Below are positions 1 to 22,273 of a DNA stretch of 22,873 nucleotides, piece after piece; position 1 is the stretch's first letter, and every line of letters begins with the position of its first letter. The DNA lies in NCBI GenBank assembly GCA_037380845.1, contig JARRRI010000017.1:58271-81143 (forward strand). Reading direction: 5' to 3'. Both the position numbers and the translations under genes were made by a program. The notes beneath the pieces are model-generated. The model saw only the letters and a program-made list of their open reading frames with translations. It was not told the origin of the DNA and searched no databases. The stretch comes from Candidatus Sulfobium sp. GTDB taxonomy: Bacteria > Nitrospirota > Thermodesulfovibrionia > Thermodesulfovibrionales > UBA6898.

Positions 1-134
1 TTTAAGGAACAGGGCAGGGCCGGAAAGTATATGGAGCAAGTAAACAGCGATCTGGAAATACAGGACTTATGTGTAATGTTTATACAGGATTATATAAAAT
101 GTTCCTAATTGTAACCTGGATGTCGCATCGCTTT

Positions 135-1481
135 TCACTCACTTGAGTCGTACTCTTTCAATTTGTCAAAAAGATTCTTATAACTTATGCCCAAAATTTC
201 CGCCGCCTTCGTCTTGTTCCCTGCAGTTGTCTCCATAGCCTGTCTGATGAGCTTCTTCTCAAGGTCTTTCACTGCCTCCTTGAGGGACAGGAAGGAATTT
301 GTCTGCCTGGTCCCGGAGATCCCGCCGACCGGAAAATTTATGCTCCCCTCATTGATAACGTCCTCCCGGGTCATCAGTACGGCCCTTCTCATCACGTTTT
401 TCAGTTCTCTGAGATTGCCGGGCCATGGGTATGTCTTCAGCTCTGTCAACGCACCATCCGTAAGTCCTCTGATCTGTCTGTTCAGCTCATTGGCCGCCTC
501 GAAGGCAAATTTCCTGGCAAAGAAAGGGATGTCATCGGCCCTGTCCCTGAGCGGCGGAAGCGTTATTATGAATTCACCCAGACGGTAGTACAGGTCCTCC
601 CGAAATTCCTGTTTCTTCACCCTCATAACCAGGTCCTTGTTAGTGGCCCCTATTATGCGGAGGTCTGCATCGACCGGAACGGTAGAGCCGAGAGGATATA
701 TAGTCTTCTTCTCGATGAAGCTCAGGAGTTTGCCCTGAACGTGGGCCGACATGTTCTCTAGTTCATCAAGGAAGATCGTGCCGTGATCGGCCGTCTCAAA
801 GTATCCCTTCTTGTCCCTGTCCGCGCCGGTAAAAGCCCCTTTCTTGTAGCCGAAGAGTTCACTCTCAACGAGGAGGTCCGGGATCAGCCCGATATCCACA
901 CAGACAAACGTCTTATCGAACCTTTTGCTCATGTTATGGATAGACTCGGCCACGAAAGACTTGCCGGTTCCGGTCTCTCCCTGAATGATAACCGAGAAAT
1001 CCGTCGGTGCGATCTGCTTCACCTGTTCTATCACTTTCTTCATAGCCGGACTCTTTCCGAATTGGTGTTCGAGTGACGAGTCGAGAGCAGCGCTGGTCCT
1101 GTTCATCTGGAGTTCCAGTTCGCGCCTCTCTGTCGCCCTCTTCAGGGTAACCACCAGTCTTTTGAAGTCGGGCGGCTTCTCGGCAAAGTCATAGGCGCCC
1201 CCTCTTATGGCCTCTACCGCCTTCTGGATGTCGCCGTATCCGGTAAGGATAATGACCGGAACACCCGCGTCGATTTTTTTCAGTTCTTTCATTGTCCCGA
1301 TGCCGTCCATGTTCGGCATTTTCAGATCAATAAGGGCGGCATCCGGTCTTTCCGTTCTGAACAACTCGATGGCGCTCAACCCATCTTCAGCTTCGAGAGG
1401 AAGGAAACCCTCCTCCTGCAGGACGTCCCGCACTATTCCCCTTAAATCCCTGTCATCATCTACGATCAGCACTCTATTCAT
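135..1481 (-). CDS. Sigma-54-dependent response regulator (NtrC/AtoC family: receiver + AAA+ + Fis-type HTH)
   Basis: Receiver (VLIVDDD, ALIDLKMP, FAEKP), Walker A GETGTGKS, ESELFG..GAFTGA, Walker B IFLDE, WPGNLREL, C-terminal GNKTKAAEILGIS. Start moved from 1523 to ATG at 1481 (MNRVLIVDD), preceded by GGGAGAGGA. Confidence 0.95.
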   Translation of the reverse strand: MNRVLIVDDDRDLRGIVRDVLQEEGFLPLEAEDGLSAIELFRTERPDAALIDLKMPNMDGIGTMKELKKIDAGVPVIILTGYGDIQKAVEAIRGGAYDFAEKPPDFKRLVVTLKRATERRELELQMNRTSAALDSSLEHQFGKSPAMKKVIEQVKQIAPTDFSVIIQGETGTGKSFVAESIHNMSKRFDKTFVCVDIGLIPDLLVESELFGYKKGAFTGADRDKKGYFETADHGTIFLDELENMSAHVQGKLLSFIEKKTIYPLGSTVPVDADLRIIGATNKDLVMRVKKQEFREDLYYRLGEFIITLPPLRDRADDIPFFARKFAFEAANELNRQIRGLTDGALTELKTYPWPGNLRELKNVMRRAVLMTREDVINEGSINFPVGGISGTRQTNSFLSLKEAVKDLEKKLIRQAMETTAGNKTKAAEILGISYKNLFDKLKEYDSSE

Positions 1482-1509
1482 GTCCGTCCTCTCCCGGGAA
1501 TTTTCGTTA

Positions 1510-3051
1510 TTATGTGCTCTCAACTATCTTTTCCTCCACCAGGGGGAGGTAAATCCTGAATTCGGTCCCCTCGCCTGACCTGCTGCGTACGTCTATCCGT
1601 CCGCCGTGCTGTTCGATGATACCGTATACAATAGAAAGACCCAGCCCGTTGCCTCTGCCCGAGTCTTTTGTAGTGAAAAAGGGCTCGAACATGCGCTCCC
1701 TGGTCTCTTCGTCCATGCCCCTGCCGCTGTCAGAAATCATAACACGGACGTACTTCCTGCGTCCCCCCTTCTGCCTGTCGGCTGCCTCCTTGTCTTCTAT
1801 AATCACCGACGCGCTCTCCATGCTCAACCTTCCGCCGCCGGGCATAGCGTCCCGCGCATTCACGCACAGGTTCATGATGACCTGTTCTATCTGGACGGGA
1901 TCGGCCTTTATGACCATCTCACTTTCCGAAAGGGAAAGCTCCAGGCGGACGTCCTCTCCCAGAATATTGGCCAGGAGCGGCTTCATCTTTCTGATGAGTG
2001 TATTGATTTCGGTCGGATGCAGGATTGTCGTCTGTGTCCGGCTGAAGGTGAGAAGGCTCTGGATAAGGCCCTTTGCTTTTGTGACGGACATATTGACACG
2101 CCGGGTATAATCCCGGAGGGGACTGTTATCATATAATTTCCTTTCCAGCATGTAGACCGAACCCTCAACAGTCGAGAGGATATTGTTGAAGTCATGGGCA
2201 ATACCCCGTGCGAGCGTGCCGATGGCTTCCATTGTCCGGGCGAGCCTGAGTTTCTCTTCAAGAGACTTTTTCTCTTTCTCTCTCTCCCTCAGATTCTCCG
2301 ACATCGCATTGAAAGCCTCTGCGAGTCTTCCCACCTCATCGTGTGTCTCTACAGGCACTTTCCCGACCGACTCACCCATGCCCAGCGACTTCACCGCATC
2401 GGTCAGACGTGTAAGAGGCAGGGTAACCCTCCTGATCGCAAAGAAGATAATTATCGCGCCCATGAAAAGAAATATTGCCGCGATCATGGCGCTCCTGACC
2501 AGGATGGTCGCCGTCTCACTGCCGAGAGCCTTCTTGTCCATGACAACCCGTACAAAACCTATGACACTTTCTTTTCTGACGGGAGGCGTATCCTCGAAGT
2601 AAAGCAGTTCCGGCGGGGCTGCGTGCAACATCAATGTAACCGGCGAGACTATCTCTATAGCGTCTGCGCTTTCCGAGACGACCGGCAGTTCCACACCAGA
2701 GACCATTGACGTGAACTCTTCGGTATTGCCGCTGAAAGATCTTTTTTCCTCATCGAACAGGACCCTCCTGTCCGCGGTCAGCACCTGGACCGCAAGGACG
2801 TTTTTCTGTTTGAGGACGGCCCGCGCCGCGTCCCTCAACAATGTCCTGTTTTCCGCGAAGACAGCTGTCTTCGAACCGTAAGCGAGAAGCGCGGAAAGTG
2901 CCTTACCCTCCTTTACGAGGTTTTCCTTGACCCGGCTCTTCTGATAATAGACAAAGAAAAGAGCGAAGATTGCCGACAGGATCATGATCGAAATGGAAAA
3001 CGACCTGAAGACTCTGAAACTGAAACTCTCTCTTAAGTTCTTAATCCACAT
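1510..3051 (-). CDS. Membrane sensor histidine kinase (2 TM, periplasmic domain, HAMP, HisKA, HATPase)
   Basis: Two hydrophobic segments flanking a ~150-aa extracytoplasmic region; HAMP (PLTRLTDAV..DEVGRLAEAFNAM); H-box GIAHDFNNIL; N-box NLCVNARDAM; DSGRGM, FEPFFTTK, GNGLGLS. Start overlaps the upstream gene by 11 nt. Confidence 0.95.
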   Translation of the reverse strand: MWIKNLRESFSFRVFRSFSISIMILSAIFALFFVYYQKSRVKENLVKEGKALSALLAYGSKTAVFAENRTLLRDAARAVLKQKNVLAVQVLTADRRVLFDEEKRSFSGNTEEFTSMVSGVELPVVSESADAIEIVSPVTLMLHAAPPELLYFEDTPPVRKESVIGFVRVVMDKKALGSETATILVRSAMIAAIFLFMGAIIIFFAIRRVTLPLTRLTDAVKSLGMGESVGKVPVETHDEVGRLAEAFNAMSENLREREKEKKSLEEKLRLARTMEAIGTLARGIAHDFNNILSTVEGSVYMLERKLYDNSPLRDYTRRVNMSVTKAKGLIQSLLTFSRTQTTILHPTEINTLIRKMKPLLANILGEDVRLELSLSESEMVIKADPVQIEQVIMNLCVNARDAMPGGGRLSMESASVIIEDKEAADRQKGGRRKYVRVMISDSGRGMDEETRERMFEPFFTTKDSGRGNGLGLSIVYGIIEQHGGRIDVRSRSGEGTEFRIYLPLVEEKIVEST

Positions 3052-3925
3052 TCTTCGCCCATCCCGCTGTGTTCTTATTTGACTCTATGCCAAGCTTCCG
3101 CAGAACCTTACTGTTGACGATGATCCCGGATACCCTCGCATCAACTCTTATCTGACCCGGTGCGCCCGCTTCATGAAGCCTTTTCGATATTGCACCCGCC
3201 TGGGCACCCATATCGAAGGAGCCCACGGTTAGCGCCGCTGCCGCTCCCATATCGACATATTTTTTCGAGAAAGTGAAAATCGGGACCTTGCTTTCAAATG
3301 AGAAAAGGAGCATGTAATCTACGGTCGCGGAGTTCAGCAGCCCCGGTTCGGGCAGCATCCAGAATATGTCTATTCTTTCCTTCAGGCTGTCCATCAGTGA
3401 AGGCACGGAGCCGGATGTTTCCGCCTTTTCGGCCACGAGCTCGATCCCCCTTGCCGCAGCCTCTCTCATCGCCTCTTTTACGTAGGCATCCGAGTTGTTC
3501 GGATCATACACCAGCCCGATCCTCTTCGCCCCCGGGAACAGCCTTGTCATGGCATCGAGGTATTTCGCAGGTGATATATACATGCTGACTCCAGATATAT
3601 TCCTTCCTTCGCCGTCAGACAGAGGAGCGGGGACCATGACATAGATTACCGGCAGATTTTCGACACTCCGCACCTTCGCGAGCGCGTCCATCCCTATCGC
3701 GACCACAACATCGGGATGGAGCCGATAGATCTGGCTGGTCACCGCATCCTGGTCCGGGGTTAGCGTTGTTACGCTGCAGTCGCAGGAACTTCGAAAACCT
3801 TCAAGGGCCTCGTTATAGGGCCCGATATCGGCGCTCTTCAGAACTGCCGCTTCATAAGCCCACGAACGTCCGGCAAGGCAGAGTATGATTAACAGAATTA
3901 AAAGGAATGATATCCTTCTTTTCAT
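3041..3925 (-). CDS. Periplasmic substrate-binding protein (ABC_sub_bind-like), no cognate permease or ATPase in the window
   Basis: Signal peptide MKRRISFLLILLIILCLAGRSWA; motifs PYNEALEGF, NISGVSM, KRIGLVYDP, FWMLP, FSKKYVDMGA, DMGAQAG, IVNSKVLRKLGI. Start placed at ATG 3925 (ORF track gives 3949) because it begins the signal peptide and follows GGGGA. Confidence 0.85.
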   Translation of the reverse strand: MKRRISFLLILLIILCLAGRSWAYEAAVLKSADIGPYNEALEGFRSSCDCSVTTLTPDQDAVTSQIYRLHPDVVVAIGMDALAKVRSVENLPVIYVMVPAPLSDGEGRNISGVSMYISPAKYLDAMTRLFPGAKRIGLVYDPNNSDAYVKEAMREAAARGIELVAEKAETSGSVPSLMDSLKERIDIFWMLPEPGLLNSATVDYMLLFSFESKVPIFTFSKKYVDMGAAAALTVGSFDMGAQAGAISKRLHEAGAPGQIRVDARVSGIIVNSKVLRKLGIESNKNTAGWAKNVD

Positions 3926-3990
3926 CCGTCCCCACGGAAATGTTTTCAATGAGTTATGATAACGTAACCACCGTTAAAATTCTATATTAT

Positions 3991-4016
3991 TGTAACGCAT
4001 CCGCTGCTTAGTTACA
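3991..4016. promoter_or_regulatory. Inverted repeat TGTAAC-N14-GTTACA, candidate transcription-factor site upstream of the SBP-HK-RR genes
   Basis: TGTAAC at 3991-3996 and GTTACA at 4011-4016 in an AT-rich intergenic stretch. Function is inferred. Confidence 0.35.
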
Positions 4017-4021
4017 TAAAT

Positions 4022-4039
4022 ACGGCCTTTTTCGGCCGT
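4022..4039 (-). terminator. Short GC hairpin, possible weak terminator downstream of the radical SAM gene
   Basis: Minus strand ACGGCC-GAAAAA-GGCCGT followed by ATTTATGT; poor U-tract. Confidence 0.3.
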
Positions 4040-4210
4040 CACCTCTGCGAAAGCCGCGTCTCTTTTTTTAGAATGCATTCCTGCGCGCCGGCAGACGGGC
4101 CCGATTGCTACCGGGAATGAGTCAAACGTGAGGCGGTCTCTTCTTGATAAGGGGGTATAAAGGGGTAAATATGACTCCGGCGGTGCCTCTCTTTTAAACA
4201 GGGAATTCCG

Positions 4211-5518
4211 CTATGCCAGCCCGTATTTGACGTCCTGCCTGACCATCGTTTCCAGGGTAGCATCGAGATAGGGCTTTCTGCAGTCCACTCCGTCCATGTC
4301 GCCGTCGCGGACGAATTTCATGTAGCGACAGCCTCCGAAGCATAAGGGAAGATAGGCGCAGTCGAGACATTCTTTGTTCTTCCAGCTATCCCGCCCATGA
4401 GGTTGTCTCCCCAGGGGCACTCCGCTTTTCAGGTGGCCGACCTTGAATTCCTCCCTGCCGATCATACCGGGACATTTGTAGATACTCCCGTCATAGTTGA
4501 CCAGCAAGTGGAGATCCATATCCATCGAGCAGACTGCGGGCCCTATCCTGTTTGTCTTATAACCACCTCTGAGTATTTCTTCTCTCAACATCAGGGTCGC
4601 TTCCGCAATCCATTCTTCATTATATGTGACACAACCATCACGAAAGCCGGCAGGAGCGATACCTTCGCTTTCGTTAGTTACAGGCTCAAAGCGTATGCTC
4701 CGGATTTTTTCGGGGGTGAGACCGCGCTCCCCGAGATCATCAAGCAGTTGCGGGAAAACCCCGTAATTGTGCTCCATGTAATTTCCCGTCACGGTGACTT
4801 TCAGGATATCACTGACTTCCCGAAGGTTCTTCACGATGGCATCGAAGGAGCCTTTCCCGCCTTTGAAAGGCCTGCACCGGTTATGTATGTATTCAGGCCC
4901 GTCGATCGGCACGGCAACCTCCTTAAGGCCGGCATAGGCAAGACTCTCAGCCATGCGAGCAGTCAGGAGACTTCCGTTTGTATTCATATAGCCAAGATAC
5001 AGAATGCCGTTTTCATCGGCGCACTTCTTCAATCTTCGCGACAGAGACAATACGGCATCCTCGCTTAAGAGCGGTTCGCCACCATAGAAGGTGACAATAA
5101 TCTTTTCATCGCCCTTTCTCCCTTCGAGCGATTCTGCCCACTTCTCCACAGCAGCGGTAACAGATTCAGCGGTTTCATCGGTCATATAAAGCCAGCCCTT
5201 CCTCCGCCCTTCGAAGCAATAAATACAATTGAGATTACAGTCCAGGTTCACGGCAACTTTGAGGCCCAGAACCCTGCTTTCCGCATTCAGGCACTCCATG
5301 AATCCAAGCATCTCCCTTAGCTCCTCTTCGCGACTGCCGACCAGTATGCCGAGACCTGTCAGAGTGTTTTGCTCTTCTTTGGTGACGACGCCGGACTTCA
5401 AGTCCTCCAGCATGGAGTCAGGAACTGAGATGATGGAAGCCTTCCTGGTAGAAAAGAGTATCACCGATGAGGAGTCATCAGGATCGGGATAAATTAGACA
5501 ATATTTGGAGAGTGTCAT
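4211..5518 (-). CDS. Radical SAM/SPASM-domain peptide maturase (resembles the 'geopeptide' radical SAM maturase family)
   Basis: CxxxCxxC (CNLNCIYC), FYGGEPLL, TNGSLL, IDGP..HN..R; complete SPASM pattern C-x13-G-x4-C ... Cx2Cx5Cx3C (CLDCAYLPLCFGGC) ... C; ~80-aa N-terminal extension; directly downstream of a short Cys-Cys peptide gene. Family name is from memory, not from a search. Confidence 0.92.
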   Translation of the reverse strand: MTLSKYCLIYPDPDDSSSVILFSTRKASIISVPDSMLEDLKSGVVTKEEQNTLTGLGILVGSREEELREMLGFMECLNAESRVLGLKVAVNLDCNLNCIYCFEGRRKGWLYMTDETAESVTAAVEKWAESLEGRKGDEKIIVTFYGGEPLLSEDAVLSLSRRLKKCADENGILYLGYMNTNGSLLTARMAESLAYAGLKEVAVPIDGPEYIHNRCRPFKGGKGSFDAIVKNLREVSDILKVTVTGNYMEHNYGVFPQLLDDLGERGLTPEKIRSIRFEPVTNESEGIAPAGFRDGCVTYNEEWIAEATLMLREEILRGGYKTNRIGPAVCSMDMDLHLLVNYDGSIYKCPGMIGREEFKVGHLKSGVPLGRQPHGRDSWKNKECLDCAYLPLCFGGCRYMKFVRDGDMDGVDCRKPYLDATLETMVRQDVKYGLA

Positions 5519-5535
5519 AACTGACTCGTTAAAGG

Positions 5536-5561
5536 GAGGGAAGGGACACGCCCCTTCCCTC
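5536..5561 (-). terminator. Perfect 10-bp stem-loop between the peptide and maturase genes (leaky terminator or 3' stabiliser)
   Basis: Minus strand GAGGGAAGGG-GCGTGT-CCCTTCCCTC followed by CCTTT; begins 11 nt after the peptide stop codon. Confidence 0.6.
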
Positions 5562-5572
5562 GTTCATTCCGC

Positions 5573-5674
5573 TTACTTGATCATTCTCGCACCGCCGCCC
5601 GCGGCGCAGCATGCAAACAGCGCAATGTCTTTCGTCTTCATACCCTCCGTTAGCACCTTGACTCGATTCTTCAC
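5573..5674 (-). CDS. Putative RiPP precursor peptide, 33 aa: MKNRVKVLTEGMKTKDIALFACCAAGGGARMIK
   Basis: Translated by hand: GTG at 5674-5672, TAA at 5575-5573; SD TAAGGAGG (5690-5683) 8 nt upstream; Lys-rich leader-like N-terminus, Cys-Cys and Ala/Gly-rich C-terminus; lies immediately upstream of the rSAM/SPASM gene. Not in the ORF track. Confidence 0.88.
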   Translation of the reverse strand: MKNRVKVLTEGMKTKDIALFACCAAGGGARMIK

Positions 5675-5699
5675 CTTCTTTGCCTCCTTAAGGGAATAG

Positions 5700-5716
5700 G
5701 CATCCCAAGGGGATGC
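5700..5716 (-). other. 7-bp stem-loop between the TonB receptor stop and the peptide SD
   Basis: Plus strand GCATCCC-AAG-GGGATGC, no U-tract. Confidence 0.4.
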
Positions 5717-5719
5717 ATG

Positions 5720-7618
5720 CTATAATTTTACCCTTATCCCTCCCTCTACCCAACGATCAGCATTCTTGTAAGTATCGGTCCAGTACTGAGAGCCGTTAAA
5801 GACATTGTGGACGGTCAGAAATCCCTCGACAGTATATCCTTTCCCCTTATAAAGTGTTTTAATCGCATTGGCGTCAAAGACAAAGGCGTTGTATTTGGCG
5901 TTCATGAAGTCGCTGGCATTCCACCAGATGTACCGCCCCCTTAGAGAGGCACGAAAGGTCTTCCCGTCGTCGTATTTGAGCGCCAAATCGTAAGTATATT
6001 GGGGGTTGTCCTTGATCTCTTCATCCGTCTCAAGGTCCTCGCTGTGAACGTATGTCGTCGCAGCCCAGAAGGTAAAGTTATGGAAGGGCATCGTCTTCAT
6101 ATCAACTTCGAAGCCCCGCCTTTGCAGCCTGCCCCCGTTCACTACAGTCCAGGTGCCCTCCTCTGCTGAAATATCCATGTTCTCGAGGGCATCATGAACG
6201 TCGTGTATGAAGCCGGTTACCTTGATCCATACATATCTCAGCGCCCCTGTCTCGACCCCGGCCTGGTAGGACCACACAGTCTCTGATGTAAGGTCAGGGT
6301 TCTTTCGGAAATATACGCTGTCAGAATAAAGAGCGCCTATAGGGGGAATGCTGAAACCCCGGGCGATGTCAGCCCGAAACAGGGTCTTCTCCGCAATCTC
6401 ATATGTCAATCCAAGACTCGGGCTGACGATATTCTCTCCCAGGCTTGTATCTTCTATGTTGACATAATCGTATCTGATGCCGGGTGTCAGGGTCAGCTTA
6501 TCCAATGAAATCGTGTCGTTGACGAAGACCGCGGCGGACTGTTCATCGAACCGTTGACCGCCCAACGCATCTGCTCTCGTCCAACTCGAGTCATAATCGA
6601 ATCCCACTACTACTGAATGTATCCCCTGCCTCAAGTTCCACTTCGCACTGCCGCCGTACACCCCCTCCTTATCAGTGGAAGTGTCTTCGGAAAGTTCGAC
6701 AAGGTCCTTGGTCAGAAAATCGAGCTTTTCGTGCGCGGCCCTGAGTGAGACATCGAGAGTCATTTCATCGCTCAGTCTGCTGTTTACGGAGAGTGTGGAA
6801 AGGAGCGTCTCTGTTCTGTCCTCGAACTTGTATCCAAGATACCCGAAATCCCCTTCCGTTCTGTGGTTCTTTCCGTAAAGGAAGGTCAGAACCGCAGTCG
6901 TGTCCTTTTCAATATCATACGATAACTTTCCATAAAAATTGTTCTGCCAGTTGTCTTCCCATGTTCTCAGGCCGTCAGTCTGGAGTCTACCGGCAAAGAG
7001 ATACCATCCGAACTTGTCCTTTTTCCCCGCGAAGGAACCCCTGAAATCTCCAGTATTACTTTCGCCGTATGACCCTGAAAGAAGGCCCTTTGTCTCCTGC
7101 TTCGCCGAAGGCGGCTTAGTGATGACATTGACTATCCCCCCTAAGGACGAGCCCCAGACAGAAGAGGCGGGGCCCTCGATCACCTCGACCCTCTCGATCA
7201 TCTGGACCGGTATAAGAGCTGGATCGGGCACGCCCCCAACAAGATTAAGATTATTCAGACTCACCCCGTCGATCAAAATTACCACATGCTCGTTGCGGGA
7301 GCCCTGAATCTGGGCTGCAGCAATGTTTCCGGGACTCGCCCCTGCAAAAGATACCTGTACGCCGTTTATAGTATTGAGCACGTCGGCCAGGGTATGGGCA
7401 TTCATCAGCTCGATATCATCCGCGGTCACGACCTCCACGTTCTCTGCGACGCGCGAGATAGATTTAAGGCTCCGGGTTGTCGAGATAACCTTCAACTCCT
7501 CCGGTTTGAAATACAGGAGCAGAAAGTTCTTCTCCTGTTGAGTCATGGAAAAAGAAGGGACCGTAATGCAGAAGATGGTAAAAAGGATTACCAGGAATAT
7601 GAGAGTTTTTCTAACCAT
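5720..7618 (-). CDS. TonB-dependent outer-membrane receptor (plug + beta-barrel)
   Basis: Signal peptide MVRKTLIFLVILFTIFCITVPSFS; plug motifs VISTTRS..VEVVTADDI..TLADVL, IQGS..VVILIDGV, IERVEVIEGPASSVWGS..GGIVNVITK; barrel motifs LTPGIRYD, NPDLTSE, VHNVFN. Start moved from 7639 to ATG 7618 (GAGG upstream). Confidence 0.93.
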   Translation of the reverse strand: MVRKTLIFLVILFTIFCITVPSFSMTQQEKNFLLLYFKPEELKVISTTRSLKSISRVAENVEVVTADDIELMNAHTLADVLNTINGVQVSFAGASPGNIAAAQIQGSRNEHVVILIDGVSLNNLNLVGGVPDPALIPVQMIERVEVIEGPASSVWGSSLGGIVNVITKPPSAKQETKGLLSGSYGESNTGDFRGSFAGKKDKFGWYLFAGRLQTDGLRTWEDNWQNNFYGKLSYDIEKDTTAVLTFLYGKNHRTEGDFGYLGYKFEDRTETLLSTLSVNSRLSDEMTLDVSLRAAHEKLDFLTKDLVELSEDTSTDKEGVYGGSAKWNLRQGIHSVVVGFDYDSSWTRADALGGQRFDEQSAAVFVNDTISLDKLTLTPGIRYDYVNIEDTSLGENIVSPSLGLTYEIAEKTLFRADIARGFSIPPIGALYSDSVYFRKNPDLTSETVWSYQAGVETGALRYVWIKVTGFIHDVHDALENMDISAEEGTWTVVNGGRLQRRGFEVDMKTMPFHNFTFWAATTYVHSEDLETDEEIKDNPQYTYDLALKYDDGKTFRASLRGRYIWWNASDFMNAKYNAFVFDANAIKTLYKGKGYTVEGFLTVHNVFNGSQYWTDTYKNADRWVEGGIRVKL

Positions 7619-7641
7619 ATAGCCTCGCCCCCAAAACACAA

Positions 7642-7647
7642 ATTATA
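7642..7647 (-). promoter_or_regulatory. Candidate -10 box (TATAAT) for the TonB-peptide-rSAM transcript
   Basis: Perfect TATAAT 23 nt upstream of the 7618 start; no good -35. Confidence 0.3.
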
Positions 7648-7738
7648 TTAACGACAGAAAAGTCCGGAACAGTATACCTGATATAGAGCGGGGTTTTCCA
7701 CGACACGCAAAAAAATTTGCTATCCGAACCGGACAATA

Positions 7739-8152
7739 CTATTTGGCCCTTCTCACCTCCGCTACCTGTATCCTCGTCACGGCACGTTCAAGGGAAGACT
7801 CTGCACGCGCAAAATCTATCTCTTCAGCTTTTCTAAGTCTCTCCTCTGCCCGTTTCATGGCCGCTTTGGCCCTGTCAACGTCGATATCCTCGGACCTCTC
7901 GGCACTGTCGGCCAGGACAAGCACTTTTTCCGGCCCGACCTCAGAGTATCCCCAGTTCACAAAGAAATATATTGACTGGTTCCCCTTTTTCGCGGTGAGC
8001 ATGCCTATTTTCAGGGTAGTGACAAAGGGGACATGGCCCGGCAGTACTCCAAATTCCCCCTCGCTGCCGCTGGAAGTGACCCCGTCAACCTCCTCGCTGA
8101 ACACAAGCCCCTGGGGGGTGACTATTTCGAGAAGCAGTTTTCCTTCACCCAT
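7739..8152 (-). CDS. atpC: F1 ATP synthase epsilon subunit
   Basis: LEIVTP, GEFGVLPGHVP, IDVDRA; last gene of the atp cluster. Confidence 0.97.
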   Translation of the reverse strand: MGEGKLLLEIVTPQGLVFSEEVDGVTSSGSEGEFGVLPGHVPFVTTLKIGMLTAKKGNQSIYFFVNWGYSEVGPEKVLVLADSAERSEDIDVDRAKAAMKRAEERLRKAEEIDFARAESSLERAVTRIQVAEVRRAK

Positions 8153-8157
8153 TCTTT

Positions 8158-10480
<2,323 letters not shown>

Positions 10481-12027: not shown

Positions 12028-12567
12028 TCACCCCTTTATAAGCTCATCTTTCAAAAGCCGAAGCTGGCCTTTAATGCTGCTGTCGTACATGGTGCTGCCC
12101 ACCTTGACCAGCACGCCGCCCAGCAGGGACGGATCCATTACATACTCGATGTCTACGTCCCTGTCAATAAGTCCCTTAAGTGAATTCTTCAGACGCCTTT
12201 CATAATCTCCCCCGATCTCCACAGGAGACAGTACAACGGCCTTCGCCCGCTTCTTCTTTTCAAGATAGATGGCCGTGGCAGTCTTTATTATCTGTGAAAG
12301 GCCGGCGATCGCCTTGATTCCGGCGATGTGAACGACAAATTTGGTGACCGTCTCCGACAGCTTCGCCTTTTCCGCGACCTGTCTCAGCGCCTTCTCTCTC
12401 TCTTCCCCGGTAAATCCCGGGTTTATGAGAACACTCCTGAACTCCCTGCTTTCCTCCATCATCTTCTCGATCACAGAGAGTTCGGCGATGGCCCTGGGAG
12501 CATCCTCCAGGCCGACGGCACTGATCAATGTTTTGGCGTACTTTTTGGCTTCCTTTAGCGGTTTCAC
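12028..12567 (-). CDS. atpH: F1 ATP synthase delta subunit
   Basis: AKKYAKTL at the N-terminus, [25 protein letters not shown] at the C-terminus; lies between atpF and atpA. Confidence 0.96.
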
Positions 12568-13190
12568 TTTTTACCCTCTATTTTTGAGACCGATTCTTCG
12601 AGCAGTTTCATCTGCTCTTCCTTGGTCATTTTCTCCCTGAGTTTCTTTTCGGCGAGCTCCATGGCGATTTCAACGGCCTCGTCCCTTATCGATGATTTGG
12701 CCTGTCTGACCTCGAAGTCGATATTGTTCCTGGCCTGCTCCAGGATTCTCTCCTTCATCTTCTCGCCTTCTTCGACAAGTCTCCCTTTCTCCTTCTCGCC
12801 CGAGATCTTCGAAGACGCGATAATTTCCTCGATCTCTTTGTCCTTGACCCTGAGCCTCTCCTCCACCTGGGCTAGTGCCTTCTCGGCCAGCTCCCTGGCC
12901 TGCTTTGCTTCATTCAGACTCTGTTCAATAAGTTCCGTCCGGCGCTTGAAGTAGCCCTTGACGTCCATCTTTTTGAACAGGTAGACCAGCAGGAAGACAA
13001 GTATGAGAAAATTGACTACCGGCCAGAGAAATTCCTTGAAAAGAGACTCGTGCATCTCCCCGCCTTCGGCTGCAAAGGCAACGGAGACAGACATGACAGA
13101 CATGACAAACGCCAAGGGGAAAGAATGAAATATTATGGAGATTATTCTTTTCGCTTTTTGACTGATTTCCGACTTCAGGCTTTTTTTCAT
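12564..13190 (-). CDS. atpF: Fo ATP synthase subunit b, with an N-terminal extension
   Basis: WPVVNFLILVFLLVYLF membrane anchor followed by a long charged coiled coil; overlaps atpH by 4 nt. Exact start uncertain. Confidence 0.92.
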   Translation of the reverse strand: MKKSLKSEISQKAKRIISIIFHSFPLAFVMSVMSVSVAFAAEGGEMHESLFKEFLWPVVNFLILVFLLVYLFKKMDVKGYFKRRTELIEQSLNEAKQARELAEKALAQVEERLRVKDKEIEEIIASSKISGEKEKGRLVEEGEKMKERILEQARNNIDFEVRQAKSSIRDEAVEIAMELAEKKLREKMTKEEQMKLLEESVSKIEGKK

Positions 13191-13612
13191 TACGCCCCTA
13201 CCAGCTTTCTGACTATTTCTTCGGAGAACCGTTCAACGTCCGCCCTGAGGGCCTGCCTGGCCCTGGAGACCTCTCCCTTCAGTTCCTCTCTCGCCGTCTG
13301 TATCATGGCAGCCGAGCTTTCCTCTGCCTCGGAGAGGAAAGTCTTCTGCATTTCCAGCCCCTCCGATCTCATTGAATCGAAGACCTCCCTGGCCTTGGCG
13401 CGGGACGCAGCTATTTCTTTGTTCATCCTTTCGATACCCTCTTCTTTCCTGCGTTCCATCTCTTTTGCGGCATCGAGCGAACCCTTGACGGTGTTATCTC
13501 TCTCTTCGAAGATCTTCAGAACGGGTTTGTAAAGGATGATATTGAGAATAAAAATCAGCGCCAGGAAATTTACGGTAAGGAGAATAAGCCAGTTTAGCTG
13601 AATATTGAGCAT
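13190..13612 (-). CDS. atpF: Fo ATP synthase subunit b' (second b-type subunit)
   Basis: VNFLALIFILNIILYKPVLKIFEER followed by a coiled coil. Start moved from 13762 to ATG 13612, preceded by AGGAAGAAGAGGA. Confidence 0.92.
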   Translation of the reverse strand: MLNIQLNWLILLTVNFLALIFILNIILYKPVLKIFEERDNTVKGSLDAAKEMERRKEEGIERMNKEIAASRAKAREVFDSMRSEGLEMQKTFLSEAEESSAAMIQTAREELKGEVSRARQALRADVERFSEEIVRKLVGA

Positions 13613-13656
13613 CGTATCCTCTTCTTCCTGAGATATTATTGATCGAAAACCTACGA

Positions 13657-13686
13657 AGACTATCACATCGAGGAAAAGTTTGTCAA
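13657..13686 (-). promoter_or_regulatory. Sigma-70-type promoter of the atp cluster
   Basis: TTGACA-N18-TAGTCT with extended -10 TG and AT-rich sequence upstream (UP-element-like). Confidence 0.6.
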
Positions 13687-13783
13687 GACATTTTATATTT
13701 AGAAATAAGAGGTTATCTAAAAATTTACCTATAAGTCGATAAGTTATCTTTATTCTTCGCAAACGAGGGGGGGAACAGGCCGT

Positions 13784-15034
13784 TCATTCCCGTTCCCCCA
13801 TCGAGGGCGCTACCAGTTTTTTTATGGTCAACCCCTGCACCAGGATCGAGAATAATACGATGCTGTATGTCATGGTTATCACCACATCCCTCTCCCGTCC
13901 GTGGGGAAGTGACAACGCCAGGGCCACGGCTATGCCGCCCCGCAGTCCTCCCCAGGTCATTACCTTCAGGGCATCGGCGGGCAGTTTGACCAGGAGCCGC
14001 ATCAGGGAGAGGGGGATTCCGACGGACACCAGACGGGCCAGAAGCGCGACCGCTATCGCAACGGCTCCCGCGACAAGGTAGGGGCCCGAGAGGGTCACCA
14101 CCAGGAGTTCGAGGCCTATCATGACAAAGAGAAGGGAATTCAGGATCACGTCGACAAGTTCCCAGAACATATCGAGGTTGTGACGGGTCTTTTCGGACAT
14201 GGCGAATTTCCGCCCCCGGTTCCCGATCAGGAGGCCGGCAACCACTATTGCAATCGGTCCGGATGTATGCAGCGACGCAGCCAGTGCATACCCTCCCGTC
14301 ACCAGGGCCAGGGTCACAAGGATTTCCACCTGATAATTGTCTATGCTCTTCAAAACCCTGTACGCCAGCCATCCCAGCATAAGGCCGAGGACGAACCCGC
14401 CTAAAGCCTCTTCGAGAAAAAGGAATAAAGCCCCCTGCAAAGACGCTGCGCGCTCTCCCGAGGCCATGCCGGCCAGAACTACAAAGACAACCACCCCCAC
14501 ACCGTCGTTAAACAGGGATTCACCCGAAATTATTATTTCCAGACTCTTGGGCGCCCCGGACTTCCTCAGGATACCCAGAACCGCAATGGGGTCGGTGGGG
14601 GAAATAAGCGCCCCGAAAAGGAGGCTCGTAATAAACCTCAGATTCAGTCCAAGCCATCCGGAGACGTAATATATGATTGTGCCGGTAACGAAAGTGGAGA
14701 TGACGACTCCCGCCGTAGCAAATGTGCCTATCTCCCATTTGCGTTTCAGCAGTTCCTCGCTGTCGACATGCAGGGAGCCTGCAAATAGCAGGAACCCGAG
14801 CATCCCCACCATCAAAGACTTGTTGAAGTTGATATTATGGAGGAAAGACTTCCAGTGTTCCTCGATGCCGAGCGTGGAGGGGACCAGACGTCCGAGGGTC
14901 ACAAGTCCCAGAGACACCAGAATCGAGATCAGCATCAGGCCTATAGTATTGGGCAGCTTGATGAACCGGTGATTCAGGTAGCCGAATGTCGCCGAAAGCG
15001 TTATGAGGACAGCGACGATATTGAATAGATTCAT
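13784..15034 (-). CDS. CPA1-family Na+/H+ antiporter (NhaP-like)
   Basis: Highly hydrophobic; LFGALISPTDPIAV, GESLFNDG, WGGLRGG, SILVQGLT. Confidence 0.93.
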   Translation of the reverse strand: MNLFNIVAVLITLSATFGYLNHRFIKLPNTIGLMLISILVSLGLVTLGRLVPSTLGIEEHWKSFLHNINFNKSLMVGMLGFLLFAGSLHVDSEELLKRKWEIGTFATAGVVISTFVTGTIIYYVSGWLGLNLRFITSLLFGALISPTDPIAVLGILRKSGAPKSLEIIISGESLFNDGVGVVVFVVLAGMASGERAASLQGALFLFLEEALGGFVLGLMLGWLAYRVLKSIDNYQVEILVTLALVTGGYALAASLHTSGPIAIVVAGLLIGNRGRKFAMSEKTRHNLDMFWELVDVILNSLLFVMIGLELLVVTLSGPYLVAGAVAIAVALLARLVSVGIPLSLMRLLVKLPADALKVMTWGGLRGGIAVALALSLPHGRERDVVITMTYSIVLFSILVQGLTIKKLVAPSMGERE

Positions 15035-17592: not shown

Positions 17593-17645
17593 GCCAATGC
17601 CTTCTCCCATTGCCTCCTGTTTCCTGTATCTTTTCCGTTTATATG

Positions 17646-17674
17646 TTGATTAACGGGAAATCTCCTGCTATCTT
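17646..17674 (+). promoter_or_regulatory. Sigma-70-type promoter for the ferritin-like gene
   Basis: TTGATT-N17-TATCTT with extended -10 TG. Confidence 0.45.
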
Positions 17675-17711
17675 ATGAAAAAACGCCGAAAAGTCGGATA
17701 AGGGGGTGCGC

Positions 17712-18002
17712 ATGCTGTCACAAATACCGTTCAGACTCGAAAAGGTCAACAGGAAGAACCTGGATAAGGAGATTCTGAGGGCGGCGATCATTGCGGAACT
17801 GGATGCGATAAACCTGTATGAACAGCTGGCTGCACTGTTAGGAAACCCCGGGGTGAAAAAAGTCCTCCTTGATGTGGCGAAAGAGGAGAAGACACATGTG
17901 GGCGAATTCCAGGCCCTCCTGATGAAGGTGGATAAAGAACAGGAAAGGGAGCTCGAAGAGGGAAGAAGAGAGGTGAATGACCTGACCAGCCGGACCACAT
18001 AA
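17712..18002 (+). CDS. Small two-helix ferritin-like protein (EncFtn/Flp, rubrerythrin-like)
   Basis: AELDAINLYEQ and EEKTHVGEF (E..Y / ExxH di-iron ligands), 96 aa. ATG 17712 follows AGGGGGTG; ORF track starts at GTG 17706. Confidence 0.85.
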   Translation: MLSQIPFRLEKVNRKNLDKEILRAAIIAELDAINLYEQLAALLGNPGVKKVLLDVAKEEKTHVGEFQALLMKVDKEQERELEEGRREVNDLTSRTT

Positions 18003-19480: not shown

Positions 19481-20707
19481 CTACAAGCCTTCAAACAGAC
19501 TTTTGAGTATGCTGAACCTCGACGGCCTTTTCACCCCCTCTTTCAAATCGGGGAGGGCCTTAAGTTCCTTTTCGCCGCCTTCTCCGGCGACTTTCACTGC
19601 AAGATCCCTTATCGCGGTGTTCAGTTCCGAATCCGGACTGTAAGAGTTGAAAGGGACCCCCTTGTTCAGGCATTTTATAGCCAGATCATAGGCATTCGGG
19701 ATTACAGAAAAGATTTCCCGGCCGATGATCTCCTCGGCATCCTTGAGACCTATGTCGCCTTTCTTATGGTACCTGTTGACGATCAACTTGACCCTGTTGC
19801 GCGAAATAGACCGTTCGAAATAGGAGAGGTGCCTCCGGACATTCTTGATGCCTGGAAGACTGAGCACGAAAGGAAGCAGCAGGAGGTCGGACACTCTTAC
19901 AGCCGCCATGGTCCTCCTGTCCAGAACGGTTTGCGTATCGATGATGATATAGTCAAACATTTTTTTCAGCAGTTCGAGGACCTTCCCCAGTTCATCCTCC
20001 GAAATTGAAACGCCTTCTTCAACTCTATGAGGTTCGGCCAGAACAAAAATTCCTGAATCATGCCTGGTCACGACACTCTTGAGAAAACGTCTGTCAAGCC
20101 GGCTGATGTTCACGGTAACATCGCTTATGGTGTACGAAGGGCTGAGATTGAGAAAAGTGCTGACATCGCCCGCGCTGAGATCAAGGTCTACAAGGATGGT
20201 GGATTTGCCGGAAAGCTGGAAAATGTTCGCCGCGAGATTTATTGCAAGGGTCGTAACGCCCACTCCTCCCTTGGGACTGAAAAGAGCGCAGATGCGGCCC
20301 GTCTTGTCCTTCGGAACGGCTTCCAAACCCCATACCCTCTCCAGTTTCCGGAAAGCGGAGACAAGATCGGCTTCATTAATCGGCCTGAGGAGATATTCCG
20401 CCGCCCCGGCCCTCATTGCACTTAGAATTGTCTCGGTCGAAGAGTCATCGCAGACAGCAAATATACTCGTACCGGGAAAACGGTCAAGGACAGTACTGAT
20501 CTTCTTTATGTCAGCACCCTGTTCGCCACATATGTCCATAATGATAACAGAGGGCTTCTTCTTATGGATCATTTCGTAGCCAGTGTTGAAGTTTGAGGCA
20601 ACACCTTCGACGTCCACCGGAATATCAGACTTCCTGATGTACTGCACCATGGCATTTATGGAATTGACGTCAGTGTCAATGACCACTACCGACATTCCCT
20701 TCGGCAT
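19481..20707 (-). CDS. CpaE/TadZ-like protein (atypical receiver domain + MinD/ParA-like domain)
   Basis: Receiver-like N-terminus (IIMDI, AMRAGAAEYLLRP); degenerate deviant Walker A SPKGGVGVTT; LVDLDL..GD; FDYIIIDT; LIVNRY; IPN..NKGVP. Confidence 0.85.
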   Translation of the reverse strand: MPKGMSVVVIDTDVNSINAMVQYIRKSDIPVDVEGVASNFNTGYEMIHKKKPSVIIMDICGEQGADIKKISTVLDRFPGTSIFAVCDDSSTETILSAMRAGAAEYLLRPINEADLVSAFRKLERVWGLEAVPKDKTGRICALFSPKGGVGVTTLAINLAANIFQLSGKSTILVDLDLSAGDVSTFLNLSPSYTISDVTVNISRLDRRFLKSVVTRHDSGIFVLAEPHRVEEGVSISEDELGKVLELLKKMFDYIIIDTQTVLDRRTMAAVRVSDLLLLPFVLSLPGIKNVRRHLSYFERSISRNRVKLIVNRYHKKGDIGLKDAEEIIGREIFSVIPNAYDLAIKCLNKGVPFNSYSPDSELNTAIRDLAVKVAGEGGEKELKALPDLKEGVKRPSRFSILKSLFEGL

Positions 20708-21017: not shown

Positions 21018-21605
21018 CTATTTCTTCCCCGTCACGAAACTGTGGAAGGCCAGCACGGGACGCTCCCCGATCTGTAAGAACCCGGCCGCCTTCATCTGTC
21101 TTTCTATCGTTTCAGCCGTCACTCTAAACGAAAGCGGTGGTCCTTCGGGCGTATCCTCCCTCTTCCAGTCTATCACCGCCAGACTCCCGCCCTTCCGAAG
21201 CAGTCGATATGCCTCTTTCGTCATCTTCTCAGGTTCTTCGAGTTCGTGGTGAAGATTTATCATGTAAACCAGGTCGGCTATGCCGTCCGGAAGCGGGACT
21301 GAACTCTCTTCCATCTTTAAGGGGATAACCGAGTCCTTCAGTTCCCCGGGGAGGTTTTCCTTCATCCACTTCACCATAACGTCCAGCAAATCACAGGCGT
21401 ACGTTCTTCCGCCGCTCATCCTCCTGCTGAACTGAAATGCAAAAACACCCGTGCCGGCGCCGATGTCCACAATCGTCCGGGGATTTTCCAGATTAAGGGT
21501 ATCCCAAATCACATCCGGGTCCAGGTATTCAAGTCTCTTCGGATCGTTGAGTTTCGCCAGCTTCTGGGGGTCGAATTTCTTTGATTCCAAGGGATTAATT
21601 GTCAT
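21018..21605 (-). CDS. Class I SAM-dependent methyltransferase
   Basis: Motif I IVDIGAGTG, ADLV..LHHEL, LRKGGSLAVIDW, GPP; ATGA overlap with the upstream regulator. Confidence 0.9.
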   Translation of the reverse strand: MTINPLESKKFDPQKLAKLNDPKRLEYLDPDVIWDTLNLENPRTIVDIGAGTGVFAFQFSRRMSGGRTYACDLLDVMVKWMKENLPGELKDSVIPLKMEESSVPLPDGIADLVYMINLHHELEEPEKMTKEAYRLLRKGGSLAVIDWKREDTPEGPPLSFRVTAETIERQMKAAGFLQIGERPVLAFHSFVTGKK

Positions 21606-22273
21606 CCGTCCCCTTTGAGTACATAACCGGTGCCCCTCACCGTGTGTATAAGTGCCTTATTGTAGCCCTTGTCTATCTTTTCTCTCAGGAACTTTATGTG
21701 GACGTCTACGATATTGGTGCTCGGGTCGAAATTATATCCCCACACATTTTCTATTATCTGCGTCCTGGACAGAACCCTGCCCTTGTTCCTGAGGAGATAC
21801 TCGATCATGGCAAACTCTTTCGGCGTCAGCAGGATCTCCTTTCCTCCCCTGTAGACCCTCCGTGCCAGGAGGTCAATCCTCAGATCTTCCAGCACCAGCT
21901 CGCTGGAAGAATCGGCAGAGCGCCTGAGCAGCGCCTTCAGCCTCGCCAGCAGTTCGGAAAAAGCGAAGGGCTTGGTAAGATAATCGTCGGCGCCGCTTTC
22001 GAGGCCTTCCACCTTGCTGTCCACGGAATCGATGGCCGTCAGCATCAAGACAGGTTTCTTCACCCCCTGCTCTCTCAGCTTACGGCACAAATCCATGCCG
22101 TTCATGCCCGGCAGCATAATATCAAATATCATGACGTCGTATTCACTCGAAGAGCCCATAAGGAGACCTTCGGCGCCGTCTTCCGCGACATCTACGGTAT
22201 AAAACTCTTCCTCCAGCCCCTTCTTTATGAAGGCGGCAACATTCTTCTCATCTTCTACCAGCAGTACTCTCAT
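21602..22273 (-). CDS. OmpR/PhoB-family response regulator (CusR/CzcR-like)
   Basis: VLLVEDE, DIMLPG, LTA, GADDYLTKPFAFSELLAR, LTPKEF, NIVDVHI..LREKID, IHTVRGTGY. Confidence 0.95.
   Translation of the reverse strand: MRVLLVEDEKNVAAFIKKGLEEEFYTVDVAEDGAEGLLMGSSSEYDVMIFDIMLPGMNGMDLCRKLREQGVKKPVLMLTAIDSVDSKVEGLESGADDYLTKPFAFSELLARLKALLRRSADSSSELVLEDLRIDLLARRVYRGGKEILLTPKEFAMIEYLLRNKGRVLSRTQIIENVWGYNFDPSTNIVDVHIKFLREKIDKGYNKALIHTVRGTGYVLKGDG

Follow-up and report, generated by a model that had tools for sequence, protein, structure and literature searches.

A geopeptide-type radical SAM locus of Candidatus Sulfobium sp. with a TonB-dependent receptor and a binding protein-kinase pair: a candidate system for uptake and sensing of its own peptide

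[quoted passage not shown] The window analysed here, a stretch of 22,873 nucleotides from Candidatus Sulfobium sp., an anaerobic bacterium of the phylum Nitrospirota, carries on its minus strand six co-oriented genes (135-7639) that encode, in transcription order, a TonB-dependent receptor, a small peptide with two adjacent cysteines (Cys-Cys), a radical S-adenosylmethionine (SAM)/SPASM maturase and, after a gap, a periplasmic binding protein, a sensor histidine kinase and a sigma-54 activator. We explain the locus best as a single functional cassette that belongs to the 'geopeptide' system defined in databases. It has two modules, one of receptor, peptide and maturase and the other of binding protein, kinase and regulator, and its gene content suggests that it may serve to take up and sense its own peptide. 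The methanobactin operon, as presented in the same source passages (PMC7558416), likewise combines a peptide gene (MbnA), a dedicated TonB-dependent transporter and a periplasmic binding protein; for the present locus, the loop of release and re-import is a proposal made from the genes. Unlike the OppA-like MbnE, the binding protein encoded here belongs to family PF04392 and is coupled to a histidine kinase, and no MATE exporter accompanies it. Methanobactin is, moreover, matured by MbnBC and regulated by a sigma/anti-sigma pair, as opposed to the radical SAM/SPASM enzyme and the kinase of the window.

Each half of the proposed arrangement has its own precedents. LuxP-LuxQ and TorT-TorS are binding-protein-dependent sensor kinases, in which a transporter-less periplasmic binding protein docks on the kinase, as modelled here. 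In the Pfe system, TonB-dependent import of ferric enterobactin by PfeA reportedly feeds the periplasmic two-component sensor PfeS/PfeR, so that the ligand crosses the outer membrane through a TonB transporter before the kinase senses it, as we propose for the window. Neither precedent joins both features or senses a ribosomal peptide encoded in the same operon, and PF04392 with sCache_4 is a different pair of proteins. By its gene content, an uncharacterised radical-SAM cluster for a ribosomally synthesised and post-translationally modified peptide (RiPP) in Parabacteroides appears similar, joining a precursor and a radical SAM enzyme to a TonB-dependent receptor and a two-component system within one diderm cluster (excerpt of PMC9389541). 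According to that excerpt (PMC9389541) it differs in its 61-mer precursor, its peptidase-ABC exporter and its nucleotidyltransferases, belongs to another phylum, and is reported there with no binding protein.

Full-text searches of openly licensed PubMed Central (PMC) papers and bioRxiv returned no literature on 'geopeptide' or TIGR04280, a result that may miss subscription papers; nothing relevant on radical SAM enzymes or RiPPs together with a TonB-dependent receptor, a binding protein, a histidine kinase or Geobacter; and nothing on coupling of PF04392 proteins to kinases. The enzyme and peptide families already have database names. The window adds a member together with new tests, namely a docking test, a kinase loop motif, a riboswitch control, receiver-only and decayed loci, and a co-variation result.

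Linkage of the cassette genes across genomes

All six co-oriented genes listed in the first-pass annotation were recovered in place on the minus strand, with identities assigned by Pfam and TIGRFAM profile scores. The sample used for comparison comprised 401 genomes of the phylum Nitrospirota, 44 of which hold a match to the maturase model TIGR04280 over its cut-off. All fifty other over-cut-off maturase loci were fetched with up to 9 kb per side and compared with the window (51 loci in all), and the 30 whose flanks reach at least 6 kb upstream and at least 5 kb downstream were treated as fully flanked. Among these 30, the receptor was present in 29, the binding protein in 26, the sensor half of the kinase in 26, and all three together in 26, which bears out the suggestion of the first-pass annotation that this receptor subfamily, the binding protein and the kinase accompany maturase homologues. 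Gene order was as in the window in 22 loci; in 4 the binding protein and kinase genes were divergent from the receptor gene, 3 had the receptor alone, and one (L080, also devoid of a peptide) had no receptor, binding protein or kinase. Wherever there was room to see it, the receptor gene was mostly located directly upstream on the same strand, as the first gene of the peptide-maturase unit (34 of 37 loci). Consistent results were obtained by unbiased clustering of 736 neighbouring open reading frames (ORFs), in which only six families occurred in more than five loci. Four are the maturase, the receptor, the binding protein and the sensor; the other two are regulators, one of NarL type (20 loci) and one of sigma-54 type (9 loci). 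Counted by genome, the receptor subfamily (E≤1e-50) was found in 54 of the 401 genomes, including 42 of the 44 that are maturase-positive; in the other two the maturase sits at a contig edge.

An independent scan of metagenomes kept 80 loci, with family-level relatives only at L109-L124 (at least 38% identity); 20 loci (L108-L125, L133 and L188) were examined, and the remaining low-identity SPASM enzymes were dropped. Of 13 family-level metagenome loci, 9 had the receptor adjacent, 11 had a Cys-Cys peptide and 5 had the binding protein, the misses falling mostly on short contigs. The nearest named record, a metagenome-assembled genome (MAG) of Thermodesulfovibrionales (Nitrospirota), shares all six genes, with identities of 67-81%, and its 33-residue peptide ends in CCTGGGGSKMIK. 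A single-protein search of genome contigs returned L108 as its sole locus, at 77% identity.

Genes may also remain neighbours by descent alone and share no function. This explanation would gain from the origin of the loci, one phylum sample and a few metagenome contigs in which shared ancestry inflates linkage. We regard it as very improbable: the linkage outlasts rearrangement, being kept in co-directional, divergent and split layouts; pairwise identities go down to 25-45%; and the surroundings differ, with an ATP synthase operon next to the cassette here and def/fmt in L038.

The two modules are usually together and sometimes apart, and each can be lost. Of 20 places where a binding-protein gene is remote from any maturase, 14 have a homologous sensor half next to it and 19 have a kinase core of some kind nearby. 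Such pairs are thus widespread without the maturase, which suggests that they form an older, general sensing module. Two receiver-only loci, L094 (genome G031) and L098 (genome G217), have the receptor, the binding protein and the kinase with no nearby maturase or Cys-Cys peptide, and a search of both genomes at E≤1e-60 gave no maturase match. In another locus (L190, contig C26 of genome G226) the maturase gene at about 3566-4850 is split over three frames, through frameshifts or assembly errors. The other five genes, for the receptor, the peptide, the binding protein, the kinase and the sigma-54 regulator, are seemingly intact, and the locus may be that of a producer on its way to becoming a receiver. 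Receiver-only loci and the frameshifted-maturase locus fit a diffusible product that can be used or sensed by others.

The precursor peptide and its maturase

The precursor gene is a 33-codon ORF (5573-5674, minus strand) with a GTG start 8 nt past the ribosome-binding site AGGAGG; its product is MKNRVKVLTEGMKTKDIALFACCAAGGGARMIK, and it ends 55 nt ahead of the maturase gene. Cys-Cys occupies residues 22-23 of the 33 and is followed by the 10-residue tail AAGGGARMIK, and a leader motif K/E-G-x-x-K-x-K stands 12 residues before Cys-Cys. Cys-Cys ORFs were present upstream of the maturase in 45 of the 48 related loci with at least 250 nt of upstream sequence (44 found by script, plus L075). L060 has a variant with one cysteine, and in L080 and L082 no Cys-Cys ORF was found upstream of the maturase. 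Given homologous ORFs in 45 of 48 loci, the small ORF of the window is not a chance frame.

When 44 peptides were aligned on Cys-Cys, which is invariant, K-G was preferred at positions -12/-11 and K-K at -8/-7, so that the distance from leader to core is fixed. Position +2 is Gly in 29 of the 44 and position +3 is Ala or Gly in 37, followed by freely variable residues; the tails are 7-13 residues long and vary even inside the window peptide's own family. In 8 of the 44 precursors the usual K-R-I-V-V-L-K-K-G leader is replaced by a long Lys/Ala-rich repeat (AKKKATKKK...) that recalls histone-like tails; precursors of this kind were seen in L042, L045, L046, L049, L055, L061, L081 and L112. Where one genome carries two cassettes, tails and leader types differ between them (e.g. 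L069 and L081 of G370, or L048 and L074 of G322). Two tandem precursor genes were seen in L040 and L053, and L109 has two tandem receptor genes before a single peptide-maturase pair (2288-6325).

The maturase gene (4211-5518, minus strand) encodes 435 residues that match TIGR04280, the "geopeptide radical SAM maturase", with 499.3 bits against a cut-off of 400 and over the full length of the model (1-432 of 428 model positions). TIGR04280 and the precursor model TIGR04229 make up the NCBIfam geopeptide system, a hypothetical equivalog defined computationally and named after Geobacter; to our knowledge, its definitions do not include a receptor, a binding protein or a kinase. The window resembles this system in its over-cut-off maturase and the Cys-Cys peptide directly upstream, and differs in that the peptide stays under the TIGR04229 cut-off (13.4 bits against 30, E 0.054). 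NCBI uses the label 'geopeptide radical SAM maturase' for close relatives in Thermodesulfovibrionales and Nitrospirota MAGs. The family is large, with at least 2,164 clusters at 90% identity reaching E≤1e-60 among the 7,999 candidates scored.

Across 44 maturases the CxxxCxxC cysteines C94, C98 and C101 and seven SPASM cysteines (C330, C349, C384, C387, C393, C397 and C413) are invariant; the SPASM domain of the window enzyme matches TIGR04085 with 52 bits. Its AlphaFold2 model (mean predicted local distance difference test, pLDDT, 92.7) has an N-terminal beta3-alpha3 domain resembling a RiPP recognition element (RRE). The best full-length match among solved structures is the thioether-forming CteB (5why/5wgg; template modelling score 0.67-0.70), followed by anSME, ChlB, TigE and SuiB. 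CteB-type maturases of SCIFF peptides, sactipeptides and ranthipeptides have the same domain order, an RRE-like N-terminus, a radical SAM domain and a SPASM domain with two auxiliary clusters; CteB is the top match in both sequence and fold among solved structures, and both substrates are peptides that contain cysteine. The two enzymes differ in that their identity is only about 20%, that the substrate of CteB has six spaced cysteines as opposed to two adjacent ones here, and that the present maturase occurs in a diderm next to an import and sensor module, with a predicted type of cross-link. Because the closest solved relative forms thioethers, we infer thioether cross-linking at Cys-Cys as the likeliest chemistry. 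That the maturase would act on the adjacent peptide is suggested by their adjacency, the fixed spacing from leader to Cys-Cys and the RRE-like domain.

The receptor and the sensor

The receptor gene (5720-7618, or to 7639; minus strand) encodes 632 residues from the ATG at 7618 or 639 from the GTG at 7639. The product has a signal peptide, matches the Plug (70.7 bits) and TonB_dep_Rec_b-barrel (114.1 bits) families and forms a barrel of the 22-strand type; ahead of the plug stands ELKVISTTR, which we take to be TonB-box-like. It is one of two Plug-domain genes in the genome, which also carries two TonB_C matches and one ExbD.

A cobalamin ligand, which the first-pass annotation had named as an outcome contrary to its reading, is disfavoured. 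In size the receptor resembles BtuB, which is also its best match among solved structures. Assignment as BtuB itself was rejected, the scores being far below the cut-offs: 125.8 bits against 599.7 for TIGR01779, the best named family, and 104.1 against 836 for NF007926. No cobalamin riboswitch was found in positions 1-8300 of the window, where an Rfam search at E≤1 gave just three chance-level matches. The other TonB receptor of the genome (contig C41; L189, 837-2816, minus strand) is immediately preceded by a cobalamin riboswitch (2974-3138, minus strand; 78.5 bits). B12 uptake therefore appears to be covered already, which implies that the window receptor serves something else, and a B12 role for it is unlikely on these sequence grounds. 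L189 shows in addition a second, partial cobalamin riboswitch (8912-9000), starting at the edge of the fetched stretch.

One substance of value that such a receptor might carry is a metal. The peptide would then be a metallophore-like scavenger whose Cys-Cys chelates a metal scarce in sulfidic, anoxic habitats; the complex would be imported by the receptor and caught by the binding protein, and the kinase would only report the loaded ligand to induce uptake, comparable to PfeS/PfeR with ferric enterobactin or to the uptake of methanobactin through MbnT/MbnE. An invariant Cys-Cys-x-Gly-Ala core with a tail free to vary would suit this explanation, as would a genome in which, of two TonB receptors, one is for B12 and the other serves something valued. 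Receiver-only genomes resemble siderophore piracy, and a peptide product that has a TonB transporter of its own as well as a periplasmic binder would parallel the methanobactin layout, as far as the passages of PMC7558416 present it. Against it, the loci share no importer of the inner membrane next to the cassette, nor any reductase, metal regulator or metal enzyme; the binding protein is linked to a kinase and not to a permease; and single genomes can hold several such cassettes that differ in their tails, which is unusual for chelators. We consider metal scavenging unlikely on balance, although it merits serious attention.

The binding protein (3041-3949, minus strand) has a Sec signal peptide and no lipobox, matches PF04392 with 94.6 bits (cut-off 25.9) and is single-copy in the genome. 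Assignment as TrpX was rejected (58.2 bits against an equivalog cut-off of 390). No ABC permease or ATPase is located near it, and no transporter family is conserved among the 51 loci. Its AlphaFold2 model (pLDDT 91) matches 3lkv, 3lft and 6hni/6hnj, aromatic-amino-acid binders of the same family; according to a published table, the solved PF04392 relatives bind single L-Trp, L-Tyr or L-Phe.

The binding-protein gene overlaps the start of the kinase gene (1510-3051, minus strand) by 11 nt. The kinase is composed of a first transmembrane helix, a periplasmic sCache_4 domain (about residues 37-184), a second transmembrane helix, HAMP, HisKA and HATPase_c (Pfam). Complex prediction for the mature binding protein and the periplasmic domain of the kinase gave a score of 0.72, compared with 0.39 for the best control; 116 of 157 solved complexes and 2 of 215 mismatched pairs attain this mark, counts that are rough because custom alignments were used. 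Three runs shared at least 97% of contacts, with partner pLDDT of at least 78. The model thus supports docking of the binding protein on the sCache domain and, together with the gene overlap, strengthens the coupling between binding protein and kinase that the first-pass annotation had proposed. On the binding protein, the modelled contacts lie in both lobes, in loops at C-terminal strand ends (39-44, 86-88, 105-107, 200-215, 227-230 and 242-244), which form the ligand-binding site of the fold and hold most of its near-invariant residues. On the kinase they fall on loop 140-156, which bears the motif E-x-L-Y-F (periplasmic loop 144-156); this motif was found in 29 of 38 maturase-linked sensors versus 2 of 13 unlinked ones. 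Since the solved PF04392 relatives hold aromatic amino acids, one idea drawn from the model is that the aromatic loop of the kinase occupies or caps the binding-protein cleft as a tethered pseudo-ligand.

All 24 scanned sensors have an N-terminal sCache_4 and/or HAMP domain, whereas their outputs differ by locus: some pair HisKA with a sigma-54 regulator, some pair HisKA_3 with a regulator of NarL type, and some are hybrid kinases that include a receiver. With a constant input half and a varying kinase core and regulator, it is the input side and not the regulator that belongs to the system, and we count the varying output as a limit on our reading. The regulator of the window (135-1523, minus strand; REC, Sigma54_activat and HTH_8 by Pfam, with a GAFTGA motif) is an NtrC-type sigma-54-dependent response regulator; its start is a TTG at 1523, an ATG at 1484 being likelier, and rpoN is present in the genome. 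A sigma-54 regulator was found in 8 of the 30 fully flanked loci, other loci having NarL-type regulators or hybrid kinases, so that it is not a conserved part of the circuit. Relatives do not share the genes that lie downstream of the regulator, and no regulon could be named.

The maturase and binding-protein genes are separated by 261 nt (3950-4210, minus strand) with a terminator-like hairpin at 4039-4022; by sequence, this gap is a probable boundary between two transcription units. Consensus scans further gave a candidate terminator-like hairpin at 7736-7720, after atpC, and a sigma-70-like promoter match at 7700-7671, before the receptor gene (7671-7736 together, minus strand), the counts of promoter and terminator matches being at chance level, not above the expectation from shuffled sequence. 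The upstream neighbour is an F1Fo ATP synthase operon, unrelated to the cassette; it has two b-type subunit genes and a same-strand Na+/H+ exchanger gene ahead of it (12564-13762 and 13784-15034). Elsewhere in the window, a 119-residue ORF without Pfam match (17639-17998) lies between the MutS2 and phosphoribosyltransferase genes; and a receiver domain is fused to a ParA/MinD-type ATPase (AAA_31/CbiA; 19481-20707) beside an OmpR-type regulator (21602-22273).

Proposed uptake and sensing of the modified peptide

We propose, tentatively and with somewhat less than an even chance of being right, that the peptide is made, modified, released, re-imported and sensed in one loop. The maturase would grip the leader of the peptide through its N-terminal RRE-like domain and modify the invariant Cys-Cys region, most likely by thioether cross-links. 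The modified peptide, of about 1-3 kDa and too big for porins, would exit the cell and be pumped back to the periplasm by the dedicated TonB-dependent receptor. There the transporter-less PF04392 protein, seated on the sCache domain of the kinase, would detect it, and phosphotransfer to the sigma-54 activator would alter transcription, probably of the cassette itself. The gene identities and the linkage behind this proposal are seen directly and the contact between binding protein and kinase comes from a model; the chemistry, export, re-import, the identity of the ligand and the regulon we infer.

A candidate for the exporter is a half-size protein of the major facilitator superfamily (MFS; about 189 residues), whose gene overlaps the maturase stop codon in 5 of the 51 loci (L038, at 8411-8980, L053, L069, L072 and L080). 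It is absent from the window, and searches of the genome gave just weak matches (E 5e-5 or worse, 25-27% identity).

The first-pass annotation had suggested a comparison of the receptor and the binding protein with the peptide core for co-variation. We compared distances in the 21 of 51 loci that have all five parts as intact ORFs, controlling relatedness by partial Mantel test only. Tail distance followed that of the receptor (Mantel r=0.46, p=0.001; with the maturase signal removed, r=0.21, p=0.04) and that of the maturase (r=0.42). Co-variation was not found on the sensing side: neither the binding protein nor the kinase sensor domain tracked the tail significantly (r=0.17), and the partial value for the binding protein was negative. 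Judged from these sequences, the missing co-variation is not what a direct fit of tail to binding protein would predict.

The latter result would be expected if the sensor module had a non-peptide ligand of its own, an external small molecule such as an aromatic amino-acid derivative that the receptor imports, and merely controlled production of a peptide with a role elsewhere, be it antimicrobial, as the precursor of a cofactor or inside the cell. The L-Trp, L-Tyr and L-Phe bound by PF04392 relatives would suit such a ligand, as would the wide occurrence of binding-protein/kinase pairs without maturase, the cases of receptor plus pair without peptide or maturase, and a locus with no exporter. 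Several observations are difficult to reconcile with it. The receptor subfamily is nearly coextensive with the maturase (42 of 44 genomes) and absent from the large families f29 and f30 (binding-protein homologues or none); its gene heads the peptide-maturase unit in 34 of the 37 loci with room to see it, and the tail co-varies with the receptor; and the kinase loop motif is specific to maturase-linked sensors. Porin size limits also let amino-acid-sized molecules pass without TonB transport, and ligands of that size would need no TonB transporter. A separate ligand for the sensor seems to us unlikely on balance, though it too is a serious alternative.

Returning to uptake and sensing of the peptide itself, the points that weigh against it are as follows. 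The solved PF04392 relatives hold single aromatic amino acids and not peptides, and the tail of the window peptide has no aromatic residue. Tail and binding protein do not co-vary. Binding-protein homologues occur in 170 of the 401 genomes and the maturase in 44, and with pairs so common in its absence the sensor module could have its own ligand; conversely, 4 of the 30 fully flanked loci lack the binding protein and kinase. The related loci are kin, and linkage counts overstate their independence. LuxP-LuxQ is a solved complex of binding protein and sensor kinase, and the docking score of 0.72 may partly echo complexes of this kind. No family of exporters or leader proteases is conserved beside the cassette in the 51 loci, and this locus has no exporter. 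Finally, a search of the window for the sigma-54 promoter consensus (TGGCAC-N5-TTGCW, up to 2 mismatches) gave 4 matches versus 7.1 expected, none of them intergenic in the cassette.

As to what the peptide would be for, we lean towards a signal-like role, in self or kin recognition or density sensing, over scavenging of a nutrient or metal, because tails diversify among close relatives, parallel cassettes differ, and receiver-only and maturase-decayed genomes exist. A more specific and more doubtful form of this idea is TonB-gated signalling in diderm anaerobes, in which the PF04392 protein would be pre-docked through the E-x-L-Y-F loop at its ligand cleft and the peptide would compete with, or clamp, the tethered pseudo-ligand; pherotypes and eavesdroppers would on this view account for the variable tails, the parallel cassettes in one genome and the receiver-only genomes.

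If uptake and sensing of the peptide are confirmed, the cassette would join two known principles, TonB-dependent re-import of a ribosomal peptide product and a binding protein coupled to a kinase, in a wiring that we have not found described. In anaerobes that have an outer membrane, it would constitute a system of peptide signals or shared goods whose peptide is sensed only after active import. A set of five to six genes with a 30-residue substrate offers a ready test case for expression, modification and assay. With the maturase present in about a tenth of the sampled Nitrospirota genomes (44 of 401), such systems would represent a considerable gap in what is understood of anaerobes from sediments and marshes.

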